Below, in pieces: positions 16,441-56,237 of a stretch of 64,000 nt of DNA. Made by a program: the position numbers and the translations under genes. Below the pieces are notes generated by a model. The model was not told where the DNA came from, did no database searches, and worked only from the letters and a program-made list of their open reading frames with translations. Origin of the DNA: Planctomycetota bacterium (GTDB taxonomy: Bacteria > Planctomycetota > SZUA-567 > H5-PLA8); the NCBI GenBank assembly GCA_038227875.1, contig JBBRPR010000024.1, forward strand, positions 56,559-120,558. The letters run 5' to 3'. Every line of letters starts with the position of its first letter. Position 1 is the first letter of the stretch.

Positions 16441-16450
16441 AGAACGGATC

Positions 16451-16575
16451 ATTTTCCATTTTCCATTTGTGATTTTCCATTTTCCATCGGAACGACCAGC
16501 GCGTGTCCTTGCGCGATGTTTCCGCTTGCGAAATGGAAAATGGAATATGACCGATGGAAAATGGAAAATGAAAAA
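16451..16575. repeat. Inverted heptamer-repeat hairpin (CATTTTC/GAAAATG) between fabH and fabD
   Basis: attttccattttccat... facing ...atggaaaatggaaaatg. Confidence 0.75.
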
Positions 16576-16592
16576 CGAAAGAGGACTCTGCC

Positions 16593-17557: not shown

Positions 17558-18078
17558 CTAGCGCGTGAGGAAACCCCAGCCGCCTTTCTTCAACTTGAAG
17601 GCGCTGATCGCGCTGTCCAAGTCGTCCTTGATCTCGATCATCTTATCCAACTGCGTGATTTTAAAGACGTCGCGCACGGCCGGGCAGACTTTGCAGAGCT
17701 TCAGGTCGCCCTTTTCTTCCTTGATCGCCTTGTAGAGCGCAATGAACTGCCGCAGCACGGCCGACGACAAATATTGGACGTTGCCCATGTCGATGACCAT
17801 CTGATCATGTACTGCTTCTTCACCAGGTCCATCAGCTGGCGGCCGAGCTCGTTGATGTTGGTTTCGTCGAGGATCCGGCTTTCCAGCAAGGTCACGACCG
17901 CGACATTGTCCGGCCCGACGATGGCCGAAAGCTTCGGCGGCGCTTTGCCGGGAATGAATTTCGAAGCCGGCTTCAACAGTGGCGGATGCAACGCGGGTTG
18001 TGCCGGCTGAGCCGGTTGACCGGGCTGAGGATTGGATCCCGGCGCTGGCGACGACGGTGGCACTGGATTGGTCGACAT
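17558..18078 (-). pseudogene. STAS-domain anti-sigma factor antagonist with Pro-rich N-terminus, frameshifted near 17800
   Basis: RILDETNINELGRQL in one frame; VIDMGNVQYLSSAVL...VFKITQLD in the next. One added A would restore the frame. Confidence 0.75.
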
Positions 18079-18190
18079 AATTCTCCCTCGCGTGCGTGCT
18101 ATTCTGGACTAACCGTTATACTAATTGACAACAACCTTGCATCTCCACTTTAATCCAACATAATCCACAACGTTTCCAGTTTATAAGGGA

Positions 18191-19810
18191 GTGTGCGTGC
18201 GAACCCCTTCTTCCTGCAGCGAATCTAAATCATGGGTTACACCGGTGCTGGTCTCAGCGCTGCTGTTTTCCATGGCTGGATGCAGCAGCGAAGACGACCG
18301 CCGCTACGAGCCGCCGCCGACCGTACCGCCTGTCACCCACACGCCGATCACCGCGCCGGGCGTTGCCGGAGCGGCGTCGGCCTCCGCGGCGCAACTGGTT
18401 CCGCCGCTGCGCCGCACCGCGCAAACATCCGTCGGGGAGAACGAGGGCTTCGGCGGACTTGAACTCGACGCGAAGCAGGACGTGATCGGTTTTCAGGCCA
18501 CGAAGACGCCGGCCGGCACCGTCGTTCACGCCCACGGGCTGGTCGCTTCCGATGAACAATTGAAACCGGCGCTGGCGAAGCTGGCGGATCTCGGCTTCAA
18601 GGCCGATGGCGCGGCCGGTTCGCCGATTTGGACGATGACGATTACAGCTGACGGCCGGCCTGCGTTCGACGTGCGGCTGGGCACCGAACTGCAGGCGAAC
18701 GCCGGCCGCATCGACGCGACCGCCAACCGACTGCGCCGCAACCAGCCGGGACGGCTGCTGAAGAACGATGACGCCACGGGTGGATTTCTGCCGCGCCGGC
18801 TCGTCTACACCGGCCAGTCCCTGGACATCGCCTTCGCTGACACCACCGGCGATCCGCATTGGTTCATCGCCGTCAAGGGCGGCTATCTACGCGGCGGGCG
18901 TTTGTTCGTGGGAGAAGACGGCGCGTTGCGCATCGAAAAGTACGAACTTGCGGCGCAACTTCCGGCGATTCCGAAGAACACCGAGCAGCTCAAAGTGAGC
19001 GCCGACGGCCGCGTGATCGCGCTGCGCACCGATGGCATCGCCGAAGCGCTGGGCCGGCTGCCGCTGATCAATATTCAGAACGAAAAGCTGACGCTTAACG
19101 AAGACGGCTTGGCGGTGCTCGACGGCGAACGCGCGCTCTCCTCCGATCTGGCGGCCAGCGAAGCGCCGGTGCGTGCCGGGCATCTCGAGTACCCCGCGCC
19201 CGATCGCAGCCTGGAACTAAAGAAACTCGGCGCGGAGCTCAGCGTCCGCCGCGCGCTCGAAGCGCTCTCGGTGACGCTGGCGAACCCGGCTGCCTCCGCC
19301 AAAGCCGGCGATGAACCGGTCGTGATCTACGCCGACCTGCCGTGGTCGGAACGCCATCTCAAAGCGCTGGGCATCCCCGTCGAACACAGCACGGGCCACA
19401 CCACGCTGATGATGGACGGCGACCCGCGCAAACTCGCCGCCGCTCTGGCCAAGGTGCTGCAGGTCCTGCGCGTGCGCATGTCCCTCCACGATCAGAACCT
19501 GCGCAACGCCGATCGTCTCCGCGACGCCGACAACCGTCTCAATCCCTACCGGCGCAAGACGCTGACCATCGACGCGCAGGGCGAAGCCGTCGAAGGCGAC
19601 GACCCCGCGCCGTTTCCGAAAACGTTCAAGCCCGGCGATCCCAACGCCGACGGCGAAGGATTCATCAGCCTGCCCAACGTCAACCGCGCCGTCGAGACCG
19701 CCGAATTCCAGGCCGCGCGCGAAGAATATAAACTCGTCCGCGCCGCCGCCGAACGCCTTGAGCCCCACAGCATTTTCCCGGACCCGCCAGCGATACCGCA
19801 GAAGGAATAG
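18191..19810 (+). CDS. Lipoprotein with degenerate FlgG/FlgF-like and FlgC-like flagellar rod domains
   Basis: Lipobox-like SMAGC; TGQSLDIA..YLRGG..IPKNTEQLKVSADG..GHLE (FlgG-like); RVRM..NLRNAD..PYRRK..PGDPNADGEGFISLPNVN (FlgC-like). Confidence 0.65.
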   Translation: MCVRTPSSCSESKSWVTPVLVSALLFSMAGCSSEDDRRYEPPPTVPPVTHTPITAPGVAGAASASAAQLVPPLRRTAQTSVGENEGFGGLELDAKQDVIGFQATKTPAGTVVHAHGLVASDEQLKPALAKLADLGFKADGAAGSPIWTMTITADGRPAFDVRLGTELQANAGRIDATANRLRRNQPGRLLKNDDATGGFLPRRLVYTGQSLDIAFADTTGDPHWFIAVKGGYLRGGRLFVGEDGALRIEKYELAAQLPAIPKNTEQLKVSADGRVIALRTDGIAEALGRLPLINIQNEKLTLNEDGLAVLDGERALSSDLAASEAPVRAGHLEYPAPDRSLELKKLGAELSVRRALEALSVTLANPAASAKAGDEPVVIYADLPWSERHLKALGIPVEHSTGHTTLMMDGDPRKLAAALAKVLQVLRVRMSLHDQNLRNADRLRDADNRLNPYRRKTLTIDAQGEAVEGDDPAPFPKTFKPGDPNADGEGFISLPNVNRAVETAEFQAAREEYKLVRAAAERLEPHSIFPDPPAIPQKE

Positions 19811-19818
19811 CGGCCTTG

Positions 19819-20031
19819 CGGCCGAGGGGTCAGGGGTCAGAGGTGGGCGGGAGCAGGCGACATTCAGGCAGTTGCAGCGCGGTCGTGAAAAGTAGGCAGA
19901 CGGCACCAGGCACCAGTCAGAAAGCAGAACGACCCTTAACTCACACAGTACTCAACCGGGCGGAACGCATATTCATCAGGAGGACATCCCCACGTCTGAC
20001 CCCTGGCCCCTGACCCCTGACCCCTCGGCCG
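19819..20031. repeat. Inverted heptamer-repeat hairpin element (GGGGTCA/TGACCCC)
   Basis: cggccgaggggtcaggggtcag ... ctgacccctgacccctcggccg with ~140-nt spacer; same family as 55964-56203. Confidence 0.8.
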
Positions 20032-20074
20032 TCAGGCCGCGCCACCTGCCCCCTGGCCTCTGGGCCGCAAGGCC

Positions 20075-21493
20075 ATGAGTCTACGCACGCAGATCTTCGT
20101 CTACGTCGTCGCGGTCATGGCCATTGTCTTCACGCTGGTCACCGCGACGCTGTTGCCGGATCGCGTGCTGGCGCAGAAATTCAACATGGCGTTGGGGCGT
20201 GAGGCGGCTGTTTCGCTGCAATCGACGCTGGAGCAACTCAGCGCCGAACAGCGCGATGCGATGATCCGCCTGCATCCGCAACTGTTCCTCAAGGAAAACA
20301 TTCTTGAAGGCTGGGTGCTGGCGAAAGAGACCGGGGAAGTGCGCGTCTGGTTTTTCCCGCAGGAAATCCGCGACCGCATCAGCGACGATTTTCTAAAAAA
20401 TGCGAATGTCGACTACATCGGCCACTTCACCGCCAAGGATGGTGAAGCGCTGGTGCTCTACGCGCGGATCAACAGCCATCTGCTCGGGCCGTCGGTGGAT
20501 CTCTGGCGCATTTTTCTGGTCATGACAGTGGGGACGATCCTGATGCTGGTCGTGCTCTACTCGCTGCTGCTGCGGTTGATCGTCAAGCCCGTCGAACGGC
20601 TGGCGGCGGTCAGCAACTCACCGGCGGTCGCGCGCGGCTTGATCCTGCAGGTGCCGCACACCGATCGCCGCGATGAAATCGGCGCGCTGGTCCGCGCGTA
20701 CAACAAGATGGCGGGCGAAGTCAACGACCTGCGCCTGAACCTGGAGAAGCGCGTCACCGAAGCGACCAACAAGCTCGAAGCCGCGCAGCAGCAGATCGTC
20801 GTCAGCGAACGGCTCTCAGCCGCCGGGCGCATTGCGGCGGGCGTCGCGCACGAAGTCAACAACCCACTCGGCGGCATGATCAACGCGGCGCGCGCGCTCC
20901 GTGCCCGCGCCGCGCCGGGGCGGGACAGCGAGTACCTCGACCTGATCGTCGAAGGCCTCTCGCGCGTGCAGGCGATCGTGGCCTCGATGCTCCAGTTCTC
21001 GCGGCCGGTGCAGCAGTCCGGATCGGTGGACATCCGCGAAGTGCTCGACGGCGCATTGATGTTCTGCCGCTACCGAGTGACCGACATGAGCGTGACCGTG
21101 GTCAAAAATTACGATGCGCCGGGCACGCCAAGCTTCACTGTCGTCGCCAACCGCACCGAACTCGGCCAGGTCTTCCTGAACCTGATGGTCAACGCGCTCG
21201 ATGCGATGGACGCCAAGGGAAAAGGCGCGGACGCGCACACGCTGACCTTGAACCTCAGCCGCGCGGACAAATCGATCGTCGTGAGCGTCTCCGACACCGG
21301 CATCGGTATGAAGCCTGAAGTAAAAGAGCGCGCGGGCGAATTCTTCTACACGACGAAGGGAGAAGGGAAGGGGACGGGGCTGGGGCTGGCGGTGGTGCAG
21401 CATATTGTGCTGCGACACAGCGGCACGCTGTCGATTGAGTCGACGGAAGGCCAGGGGACGAAGGTGGTGGTGACGCTGCCGGCGGAGTTGTAA
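20075..21493 (+). CDS. Membrane sensor histidine kinase (HAMP-HisKA-HATPase)
   Basis: Two TM segments, HAMP DEIGAL, H-box AHEVNNPL, N-box NLMVNALDA, DTGIG, GTGLGL. Confidence 0.93.
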   Translation: MSLRTQIFVYVVAVMAIVFTLVTATLLPDRVLAQKFNMALGREAAVSLQSTLEQLSAEQRDAMIRLHPQLFLKENILEGWVLAKETGEVRVWFFPQEIRDRISDDFLKNANVDYIGHFTAKDGEALVLYARINSHLLGPSVDLWRIFLVMTVGTILMLVVLYSLLLRLIVKPVERLAAVSNSPAVARGLILQVPHTDRRDEIGALVRAYNKMAGEVNDLRLNLEKRVTEATNKLEAAQQQIVVSERLSAAGRIAAGVAHEVNNPLGGMINAARALRARAAPGRDSEYLDLIVEGLSRVQAIVASMLQFSRPVQQSGSVDIREVLDGALMFCRYRVTDMSVTVVKNYDAPGTPSFTVVANRTELGQVFLNLMVNALDAMDAKGKGADAHTLTLNLSRADKSIVVSVSDTGIGMKPEVKERAGEFFYTTKGEGKGTGLGLAVVQHIVLRHSGTLSIESTEGQGTKVVVTLPAEL

Positions 21494-21540
21494 CGGGTAG
21501 TTTTGAATTGCGCTTTAATCCTTCTCGACAAGGTCCACCT

Positions 21541-21969
21541 ATGTCAACAAACGCATGGGTTTGCTATGAGTGCTCGGTTGGTGGTAAGCCAGCGTCGGTC
21601 CTGATCGATACATCCCTAAGATATAAAAACCCTGTTAGAGAACTTCCCTGGCTATTGTGGCTTGGCATTTGGTGTAATCTGCCGTCGCCAAATTCATGGT
21701 GGCATCCGGATGAAAGTACGCGGTTGGACGGTATCGAGGACGATCTAATCGCAAGCGTTAAGACTCTTAAGCCGGGTTTGGCGGTATATGTTTTGCGCAT
21801 TTGTACGCCGGGTATGAGAGAACTTTACACCTACGTTGATTCTGCAAAAGGCCAGCAGGAAATTCTCGCAGCACTGAAACGTAAGTATGCTAACTATCGG
21901 ATCGAAATTGATAGTACGGAAGACCCTGCCTGGAAGATATACGACACCTATCTCCCGCCGAAGTACTAG
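21541..21969 (+). CDS. DUF695-like protein
   Basis: GKPASVLID...ESTRLDGIEDDL...GMRELYTY...DPAWKIY..YL; visibly lower GC. Confidence 0.55.
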   Translation: MSTNAWVCYECSVGGKPASVLIDTSLRYKNPVRELPWLLWLGIWCNLPSPNSWWHPDESTRLDGIEDDLIASVKTLKPGLAVYVLRICTPGMRELYTYVDSAKGQQEILAALKRKYANYRIEIDSTEDPAWKIYDTYLPPKY

Positions 21970-55948: not shown

Positions 55949-55963
55949 GCGCGCTGACGCGCG

Positions 55964-56203
55964 AGGGGCCAGGGGTCAGGGGTCAGAATAGAGTCAGGTT
56001 ACTGCGAGTTGCTTAGCGCGGTGAGTTTGAGAGAGTAGAAGGCAGAATGCAGTGGCAGTAGGCAGGCAGGTTCGCAAGGCAATTGAGCAAGTCGGGAGCA
56101 GACGTTCGACAAGCGGTAAGGAGTGATCGGCCAAAGAAATGGGATCGTCGTAGAGTGGGAAGGCAACTCTATTCTGACCCCTGGCCCCTGACCCCTGACC
56201 CCT
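55964..56203. repeat. Inverted heptamer-repeat hairpin element (GGGGTCA family) inside the redox operon
   Basis: aggggccaggggtcaggggtcagaatagagt ... actctattctgacccctggcccctgacccctgacccct; ~170-nt spacer. Confidence 0.8.
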
Positions 56204-56237
56204 TGGCGTTTACGCCACACGCCACGAGGATAAGACG

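Follow-up and report, generated by a model that had tools for sequence, protein, structure and literature searches.

A predicted lipoprotein containing two flagellar rod-protein folds is encoded apart from the flagellar genes in an order of Planctomycetota

The 64,000-nt stretch of DNA analyzed here (the window; contig JBBRPR010000024.1 of Planctomycetota assembly GCA_038227875.1) contains an open reading frame (ORF) for a putative lipoprotein of 539 amino acids (aa) at positions 18191-19810 of the forward strand, with a sensor histidine kinase gene directly downstream. All coordinates are positions in the window unless a contig or locus is named, and residues are numbered from the ORF start at 18191. 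The codon-position GC content of the frame (0.71/0.49/0.79) resembles that of neighboring genes. The encoded protein begins with a signal peptide and a lipobox, and after a Pro-rich tether it is laid out as two units, each consisting of a small alpha/beta domain and a complete rod-protein fold (Table 1).

A Pfam scan of the lipoprotein produces no match. The NCBIfam FlgF model NF009280 aligns with aa 199-319 (E=6.7e-8; 32.4 bits against a cut-off of 210), and lower scores come from TIGR02490 (17.0 bits, cut-off 178.5) and TIGR02488 (14.2 bits, cut-off 252.75), such that the protein lies below all FlgF and FlgG cut-offs. When a profile of the family is compared with PDB sequences, it retrieves FlgF (7bin_b, E=2e-13), FlgG (6jzr_A, E=1.9e-6) and FlgC (7bin_V, E=5.4e-7), and all other matches at E≤0.053 are rod or hook proteins too. 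The AlphaFold2 (AF2) model of the protein has a mean predicted local distance difference test score (pLDDT) of 78.5, mostly >80 from aa 100 onward, and a predicted template modeling score (pTM) of 0.51. In this model, the FlgF/FlgG-like module comprises an N-terminal helix (156-182), a beta-rich D1-type domain (202-335) and a C-terminal helix (339-364). VIA-align superimposes it on FlgF 8z5s_m (Z 14.9, root-mean-square deviation (rmsd) 4.9 Å over 210 residues; model 156-374 on chain 1-248) and on the core present in a FlgG fragment, 6jf2_A (Z 14.3, rmsd 2.9 Å, 134 residues). Foldseek finds FlgF 7cbm_b with E=1.4e-9 over 244 columns.

The second module is the most conserved part of the family, with N-L-R-N-A, PYRRK and PNVN invariant. 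It matches the NCBIfam FlgC model TIGR01395 over aa 422-514 (E=2.7e-9; 37.4 bits, cut-off 102.1), and is 28% identical to the FlgC encoded elsewhere in the host genome (E=1e-7). The modeled fold runs from a helix carrying QNLRNA (412-440) through PYRRK and a beta part with GDPNAD..GF..LPNVN to a second helix (499-523). It is placed by VIA-align on FlgC 7cg0_h (Z 9.4, rmsd 3.6 Å, 115 of 128 residues; model 411-527 on chain 2-126) and by Foldseek on FlgC 7cg0_i (E=5.4e-5). A preliminary interpretation made from the letters of this DNA (hereafter the sequence-only reading) had described a FlgG/FlgF-like block followed by a FlgC-like block, and both identifications are borne out by the profile and fold matches.

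Rod proteins typically carry ANNLAN-type motifs near the N terminus and LE.SNV motifs near the C terminus. That these motifs are eroded, as had been proposed, is true of the FlgF/FlgG-like module, in which an invariant GHLE is followed by YPAPD or variable residues and not by SNV, and whose N-terminal helix columns show no majority residue in an alignment of 25 lipoprotein sequences. It is not true of the FlgC-like module, given the three motifs that it keeps. The label “degenerate” is likewise misleading. Fifty columns are invariant in the same alignment, Y206, T207, G208, D212, A214, G235, G236, G330, H331, L332 and E333 of the FlgF/FlgG-like module being invariant residues, and according to the model both modules are whole axial-protein folds, terminal helices included. 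Nevertheless, likeness to the FlgC profile falls short at both ends: among 52 anchored modules it begins 9-22 positions after the profile start, and in 51 of them it ends 12-29 positions early (P0053 matches positions 12-54 only). True FlgC proteins span the whole profile in eight of eight cases, the profile having been built from those same eight. Since the modeled helices are nearly full length, this shortfall reflects divergence and not simple truncation.

Upstream of the modules, the N-terminus of the protein has the composition of an export signal, with basic residues (R4 and K13), a hydrophobic stretch (aa 15-30, modeled as a helix at aa 16-28) and SMAG/C. All 25 aligned homologues have Cys31, and at least 90% have Gly30; a lipobox-like motif, defined by a simple pattern, occurs in 16 of 17 loci. 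By the lipobox rule, SMAG/C is classed as a lipoprotein signal, and the protein is predicted to be lipidated and membrane-anchored. Both the lipobox-like motif and the Pro-rich tether had been noticed before and proved to be there, the tether being disordered in the AF2 model. Its columns vary in length and sequence in the alignment, except for a conserved PPLRR motif. A Shine-Dalgarno-like AAGGGAG, read by eye at 18185-18191, makes GTG at 18197 the likelier start codon. One gene caller began the protein at Met28, within the signal peptide (P0001, 512 aa); the hydrophobic stretch before Met28 is kept in homologues.

Table 1. Features of the lipoprotein gene and the adjoining kinase gene
Feature	Positions	Strand	Basis
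Signal peptide and lipobox SMAG/C, Cys31	18191..18283	+	Alignment, Shine-Dalgarno-like site; lipidation predicted
Pro-rich tether, aa 32-94	18284..18472	+	pLDDT <50 at aa 29-87; predicted disordered
Alpha/beta domain 1, aa 95-155	18473..18655	+	AF2 secondary structure, pLDDT ~80-90
FlgF/FlgG-like module, aa 156-374	18656..19312	+	NCBIfam, PDB profile search, Foldseek, VIA-align
Alpha/beta domain 2, aa 375-410	19313..19420	+	AF2 secondary structure and alignment
FlgC-like module, aa 411-527	19421..19771	+	TIGR01395, PDB profile search, Foldseek, VIA-align
Pro-rich C-terminal tail and stop codon	19772..19810	+	F529, P530 and P532 invariant in alignment
Repeated palindromic intergenic element	19810..20040	.	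Between lipoprotein and kinase genes
Sensor histidine kinase, 472 aa	20075..21493	+	Pfam HAMP aa 164-217, HisKA 251-311, HATPase 360-471
Kinase periplasmic sensor stretch, aa 30-145	20162..20509	+	No Pfam match; proposed lipoprotein contact site

The segments that lead into each module had been called loosely similar to one another. In the AF2 model they are real alpha/beta domains, the first with strands at 99-106, 109-116 and 146-151 and a helix at 125-133 containing LAKLADLGF, the second with a strand at 377-379, a helix at 384-392 bearing HLKALGI, and strands at 397-400 and 403-406. Their mutual similarity, however, is not significant (hhalign P=0.014 and 0.045, probability 3%), and an internal duplication is unsupported. 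Domain 1 (searched as aa 92-156) has no usable match in the protein atlas, and VIA-align gives only weak matches (Z 4-5) to unrelated chains for the alpha/beta domains. Domain 2 is strongly conserved (D382 and L393 invariant; H389, L390, K391 and G394 in at least 90%), and also precedes the FlgC-like module in single-module lipoproteins.

Searched against 5.8 billion proteins, the lipoprotein has 26 homologues of similar length, which are 39-83% identical to it. All come from metagenomes or from metagenome-assembled genomes (MAGs) of Planctomycetota, and several carry the automatic names FlgC or FlgF from the Joint Genome Institute (JGI). An exhaustive profile search of 1.84 billion representative proteins identifies 39 clusters at E≤1e-30. 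To place the gene among genomes we used a set based on GTDB, in which the order comprises 20 genomes (one of these, the unpublished G019, has no match and counts in denominators only). The lipoprotein is present in 18 of the 20, the window's own genome included. Apart from the window's genome, the family to which it belongs (f1) has 16 genomes, of which 15 encode the full-length protein, and the two genomes of family f2 have partial matches from about profile position 234 onward. Within a sample of 401 Planctomycetota genomes, full-length matches are confined to f1.

This recurrence bears on the possibility that the ORF arose by chimeric assembly, is a pseudogene in decay or resembles rod proteins by chance, for which one could cite family scores that fall far below curated cut-offs and the absence of any Pfam match. 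The full-length architecture in 15 further f1 genomes and its partial form in two f2 genomes, with invariant motifs throughout, argue to the contrary, as do profile and fold matches that are specific and cover whole chains. Moreover, the probable source run has a contig that extends over 18100-20024, and hence over the whole ORF, without interruption or differences. Small contigs from the runs of other studies cover the gene in part, including 19117-19443 (two differences), which leads from the last part of the FlgF-like module across domain 2 into the FlgC-like module. A chimera, which the sequence-only reading had named as a finding that would refute it, is ruled out by these contigs. Together with the recurrence and the whole-chain matches, they refute this explanation in all its forms and leave it a negligible probability.

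The FlgC-like module and its leader domain also exist in simpler proteins. In family f5, all four genomes encode a single-module lipoprotein of 215-225 aa consisting of a lipobox, an alpha/beta domain and a FlgC-like module. The model of one protein of this type, P0027 (pLDDT 88.9), was compared with 48,161 chains and matches FlgC 7bin_V best (Z 10.6, rmsd 2.3 Å). Among the 401 sampled genomes, the alpha/beta plus FlgC-like unit is found only in f1 and f5. In a quick tree of FlgC-like parts, eight true FlgC proteins form one split against 51 anchored modules (Shimodaira-Hasegawa approximate likelihood ratio test (SH-aLRT) support of 100), and 17 long forms make up a clade (SH-aLRT 99). The backbone is unresolved, and for this reason the tree allows a single origin of the anchored modules but does not demonstrate one.

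Several other architectures came to light in these searches. Metagenomes hold diverse Sec/lipobox proteins of 170-250 aa with one alpha/beta domain and one FlgC-like module, some of them automatically named FlgC (examples are P0066, P0069, P0070, P0089, P0094, P0098 and P0160). As a single-protein query, P0160 retrieves matches to the FlgC-like part only. The lipobox protein P0064 (567 aa) has the reversed order, FlgC-like module first and FlgG-like module second. P0093 (1005 aa) has the module order of the window's protein followed by ~400 aa of HEAT repeats, and P0105, P0121 and P0161 (978-1025 aa), which match both modules over a similar span, may resemble it. A genome of family f4 (G020) encodes a divergent two-module lipoprotein of 491 aa (LLAG/C; L130:1885-3360), whose gene overlaps that of a 987-aa GGDEF and AAA_16 protein (L130:3312-6272), a single case of a signaling neighbor. 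In a flagellated genome of the same class (G032, family f7), a 253-aa protein (L132:1641-2402) has an N-terminal membrane span without a lipobox and a FlgC-like C-terminal part. Finally, P0083 (3219 aa) contains 12 tandem FlgG-core (D1-type) repeats with a type IX secretion system (T9SS) sorting domain at its end, and P0076 (1246 aa) contains three tandem FlgG-core repeats.

The window's genome (G000) is itself flagellated, with a canonical FlgC (143.8 bits), FlhA and a normal flagellar set on contig 22. The earlier label “orphan” therefore applies in the sense that the lipoprotein gene lies outside any flagellar locus, but not in the sense that the genome lacks flagellar genes. A Pfam scan of 45 ORFs in the window detects none that is flagellar, in agreement with the original observation, and none of the loci examined has the lipoprotein gene in a flagellar cluster. 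The distribution of the gene across the order is more telling. FlhA and FlgC above cut-off co-occur in seven of the 20 genomes (G000, G003, G006, G008, G010, G014 and G017), and 11 of the 18 lipoprotein carriers have neither. Ten of these 11 match the FlgC family only through the lipoprotein, and G007 does not match it at all. The 11 genomes are 95, 93, 89, 89, 88, 86, 86, 83, 80, 79 and 61% complete, and include G004 (95%), G011 (93%) and G007 (88%, six contigs). FlgG and FliP are missing as well in the four carriers checked further (G004, G005, G007 and G011); both are present in G006, which belongs to the same genus as G007. The joint lack of four flagellar markers in genomes that are 88-95% complete, beside close relatives that score positive, is strong evidence, even if absence from a MAG is never proof. 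Conversely, in families f6 and f7 of the same class all 37 genomes match the FlgC family (35 above cut-off) and none carries this lipoprotein.

These data largely refute the notion that the protein is a flagellar accessory, such as a rod cap, an adaptor, or an assembly checkpoint that would signal to the kinase and a sigma54 regulator when the rod is complete. Homology to rod proteins, the flagellated state of the window's genome and the JGI names FlgC and FlgF given to homologues would fit such a role, and the partner regulator described below is sigma54-dependent, as are regulators in the flagellar hierarchies of other bacteria. However, besides the 11 markerless carriers and the 37 genomes with FlgC-family matches that have no lipoprotein, six of the eight genomes in which the lipoprotein is paired with the kinase are without FlhA and canonical FlgC. 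We consider an accessory role in the flagellum very unlikely, and the rod cap/adaptor alternative offered by the sequence-only reading is abandoned on the same grounds. Its central proposal, that rod folds were repurposed outside the flagellum, gains support from the non-flagellar locus and the markerless carriers. The lipoprotein is not a flagellar part and is independent of the flagellum. It is highly probable that the protein is Sec-exported, anchored by lipid in the periplasm, and descended from flagellar axial proteins without any longer being part of a flagellum.

A separate observation concerns contig 22, on which a gene for a sigma54-type activator (62940-64016, reverse strand) adjoins flgC in the flagellar cluster. 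Its product, a different protein from the regulator of the lipoprotein-linked kinase, is a candidate for a flagellar class regulator.

Comparison with the ancestral proteins illustrates how far the modules have moved. Like FlgF and FlgG (8z5s chain m, 7cbm and 6jf2), aa 156-374 have the axial fold and the core motifs TG.PLD, RGG, DG and G.LE. The sequence identity is only 17-21%, however, and the NCBIfam scores reach 14-32 bits where the cut-offs are 178-253. Whereas FlgF and FlgG are free subunits that leave through the flagellar gate, the module is embedded in a Sec/lipobox protein, has a poorly conserved N-terminal helix onto which a folded domain is joined as a cap, and occurs in genomes without a flagellar export apparatus. 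The FlgC-like part (aa 411-527) shares with FlgC (TIGR01395; 7bin chain V and 7cg0) its fold and the elements N.L.NA, PYR(R/A)K and PG.P.AD..G.V..PNV. FlgC itself is a free subunit of ~135-150 aa that is exported by the type III route and has no Sec signal, whereas the module is internal to a 539-aa lipobox protein, fused behind an alpha/beta domain, well below the FlgC cut-off (37.4 against 102.1 bits), not dependent on the flagellum, and finished by a Pro-rich tail in place of the last turns of the C-terminal helix. The rod/hook beta core is also reused outside flagella by FlgE/F/G D1-type proteins (PF22692, a Pfam domain annotated on two homologues of the lipoprotein; P0083 and P0076 are examples). 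Those proteins reuse the D1 core only, unlike the lipoprotein, which keeps two whole axial folds with terminal helices. Among the entries listed by full-text literature searches, none describes a homologue of rod proteins that is exported by Sec or anchored by lipid. Built from known folds, the lipoprotein can be classed as an offshoot of the axial-protein superfamily that is routed through Sec, anchored by lipid and independent of the flagellum.

Might the modules still assemble? Tandem modules that polymerize could form a lipid-anchored, short, rod-like stub in the periplasm, built without type III export, as part of a hypothetical non-flagellar machine. Neither module has lost a terminal helix, the FlgC-like one retains its N-L-R-N-A, PYRRK and PNVN motifs, and the two are fused in either order in different lipoproteins. 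It also counts in favor of polymerization that FlgC and FlgF form neighboring layers in Salmonella rod structures. On the other hand, the chain ends of axial proteins lie in a tightly packed inner tube, and here a folded domain sits on the N-terminal helix of each module, a conserved Pro-rich tail follows the C-terminal helix, none of the 52 anchored modules resembles the FlgC profile all the way to either end, and conserved machine genes are not found nearby. We infer from the junctions with folded domains and from entry through Sec that the modules do not pack canonically into a rod. Canonical axial polymerization is therefore unlikely, and a polymeric stub is improbable. More probably, the lipoprotein folds compactly as a monomer or a small oligomer, its two modules touching each other like FlgC and FlgF rod layers.

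The kinase encoded downstream has two hydrophobic spans, read by eye, that flank a periplasmic stretch of ~115 aa, and in NCBIfam it comes closest to AtoS/ZraS-type kinases without reaching any of their cut-offs. The periplasmic stretch is poorly conserved across nine orthologs. Orthologs of the sensor half occur in nine of the 20 genomes of the order, and in all eight genomes that have both genes (G000, G004, G005, G010, G011, G016, G001 and G002) the kinase lies directly downstream of the lipoprotein on the same strand. The gene linkage behind the earlier suggestion of a sensory partnership is thereby seen to be conserved in relatives, but the partnership itself stays tentative. A regulator with receiver, sigma54-interaction and HTH_8 domains follows the kinase in seven of the eight. 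The regulator ortholog of the window's genome, at 70% identity, is unlinked to the pair (contig 4:125582-127105). The triad of lipoprotein, kinase and regulator spans two families of the order (f1 and f2). An operon of the lipoprotein with the kinase and sigma54 regulator is conserved but dispensable.

This arrangement is reminiscent of the QseG-QseE-QseF (GlrK/GlrR) system of Enterobacteriaceae, in which genes of the same three kinds share a locus: one for a lipoprotein, one for a membrane kinase that has a periplasmic loop, and one for a sigma54 activator of the NtrC type. QseG is reported to be an outer-membrane lipoprotein that binds the periplasmic part of QseE, and QseF to be sigma54-dependent (PMC6075780, PMC12691602). 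By analogy with that system, the recycled rod fold may serve as a periplasmic accessory lipoprotein of the downstream kinase, a reading that we hold tentatively, together with its mechanism, as a real possibility that falls somewhat short of probable. The two systems differ in that the lipoprotein gene comes first in the window's locus, in that the linkage is lost in about half of the lipoprotein carriers, and in that kinase binding is here only presumed. The enterobacterial qseG gene lies between qseE and qseF.

Under the accessory-lipoprotein reading, the protein would be anchored by its lipid, with its modules held in the periplasm on a flexible tether of ~60 residues. In response to a cue from the cell envelope, it would bind or release the ~115-residue periplasmic loop of the kinase, and this binding or release, like the cue itself a supposition, would set kinase activity, much as QseG acts on QseE/QseF in E. 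coli. The kinase would in turn act with the sigma54-dependent, NtrC-type response regulator, which is adjacent in relatives and encoded on contig 4 here. Co-folding of lipoprotein aa 88-539 with kinase aa 28-148, each supplied with an alignment and performed without controls, gave ipSAE values of 0.01 and 0.00 and a mark of 0.32, and speaks neither way.

A number of observations weigh against a kinase accessory. Eight carriers (G003, G006, G007, G008 and G012-G015, in genera g2, g5 and g8) have no ortholog of the kinase sensor half, and in these the lipoprotein gene sits amid unrelated housekeeping genes (RlmN, LexA, IGPD and others). G009 has lexA, kinase and regulator but no lipoprotein, and the single-module relatives in f5 have no adjacent kinase. 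Two further lipoprotein loci end at a contig edge and are uninformative for kinase linkage. QseG is not among the listed PDB profile, Foldseek or VIA-align matches, which are taken up by rod proteins, no direct comparison having been made. Within the window itself, the palindromic element between the two genes interrupts independent contigs of the probable source run, so that the case for local adjacency comes from the original assembly and from the synteny seen in relatives. Furthermore, the adjacency would fit equally well if the two-component system merely regulated the lipoprotein.

An alternative is a stand-alone envelope protein, either structural or an adaptor that tethers to the wall or outer membrane, which uses the rod folds as a rigid scaffold and is only co-transcribed with or regulated by the kinase and regulator. 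The eight carriers in varied housekeeping surroundings and the G009 locus speak for such a protein. Consistent with it, too, is the wider set of Sec/lipobox proteins of 170-250 aa with alpha/beta and FlgC-like parts, along with other fusions such as the reversed order and the HEAT-repeat form. Yet both genes are adjacent in eight of eight genomes that have them, across two families, and conserved structural partner genes are not found nearby. A scan for the sigma54 -24/-12 pattern (TGG-N9-[TC]GC[AT]) in ~100 nt before the frame and the first codons of 17 loci, a narrow scan, found no conserved site; matches lie within coding sequence, save one weak match in L117. Because of this result, control of the lipoprotein by the sigma54 regulator is unsupported. 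On balance, a stand-alone role is the main rival of the accessory reading and somewhat less likely than it.

A bolder combination of these ideas can be imagined. The FlgF-like/FlgC-like tandem might mimic a rod-layer contact, and copies might stack into a lipid-hung periplasmic strut without type III secretion, with strain or assembly read by the kinase. Such a strut is speculative and unlikely to exist. If it did, it would constitute a flagellum-derived mechanical or envelope-integrity sensor kept after loss of the flagellum.

The gap of 265 nt between the lipoprotein and kinase genes is explained by the palindromic element, which is not part of the protein system. The element has 34-nt arms of GGGGTCA heptamers that are 91% complementary and lie 163 nt apart. 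A second copy occurs at 55963-56204, and the pattern matches nine times in the window against zero expected. Positions 19924-20037 show very high word depth in the probable source run. This depth and the contig breaks indicate that the element is probably multi-copy in this genome, resembling miniature inverted-repeat transposable elements (MITEs) or repetitive extragenic palindromic (REP) sequences. Another palindromic spacer, at 16449-16585 between fabH-like and fabD-like genes, has 39-nt arms of ATTTTCC heptamers that are 90% complementary and 45 nt apart.

Upstream of the lipoprotein gene, an STAS-domain gene of the anti-sigma-factor antagonist type (17558-18078, reverse strand) appears to be split over two overlapping frames. 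ORF 17701-18078 contains a Pro-rich start and the apparent first half of the STAS domain, and ORF 17558-17800 matches positions 43-106 only of the Pfam STAS profile. A frameshift, an error in sequencing or decay to a pseudogene could account for the split. Across 17900-21700, a scan for sigma70-type promoters found no promoter-like site, and terminator-like sites were at chance level (5 versus 4.2 expected). The sequence TTGACA-N18-TTTAAT at 18125-18154, spotted by eye, fails the rule of the tool and is not claimed as a promoter.

The surroundings differ in the closest relatives, where a Ser/Thr protein kinase gene is upstream of the lipoprotein in four loci (L108, L110, L107 and L129, of G005, G004, G017 and G016, respectively); the window has fabH, fabD and STAS genes in its place. 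In G004 and G005, a gene for a periplasmic PD40 beta-propeller/PDZ protein lies between the Ser/Thr kinase and lipoprotein genes. Given that the histidine kinase and regulator also follow in G004, G005 and G016, the locus there looks like an envelope-signaling island.

Flagellar axial proteins of the rod, hook and filament are regarded as substrates of the type III export gate that fold only upon assembly. In the lipoprotein described here, two whole axial folds have moved to the Sec/lipoprotein route, have acquired new leader domains and persist under selection even in lineages that lost the flagellum, making this a clean natural case of a motor part co-opted for another use. The protein presents rod folds in a soluble, presumably non-polymerizing form that should be useful for structural study. 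A practical consequence is that the automatic names FlgC and FlgF on these lipoproteins can make aflagellate genomes appear partly flagellated. If the link to the kinase is functional, the protein would add a new fold to the few accessory lipoproteins that control two-component kinases. To our knowledge, few envelope-signaling systems have been characterized in Planctomycetota, and a functional link would also provide a handle on envelope signaling in this phylum.

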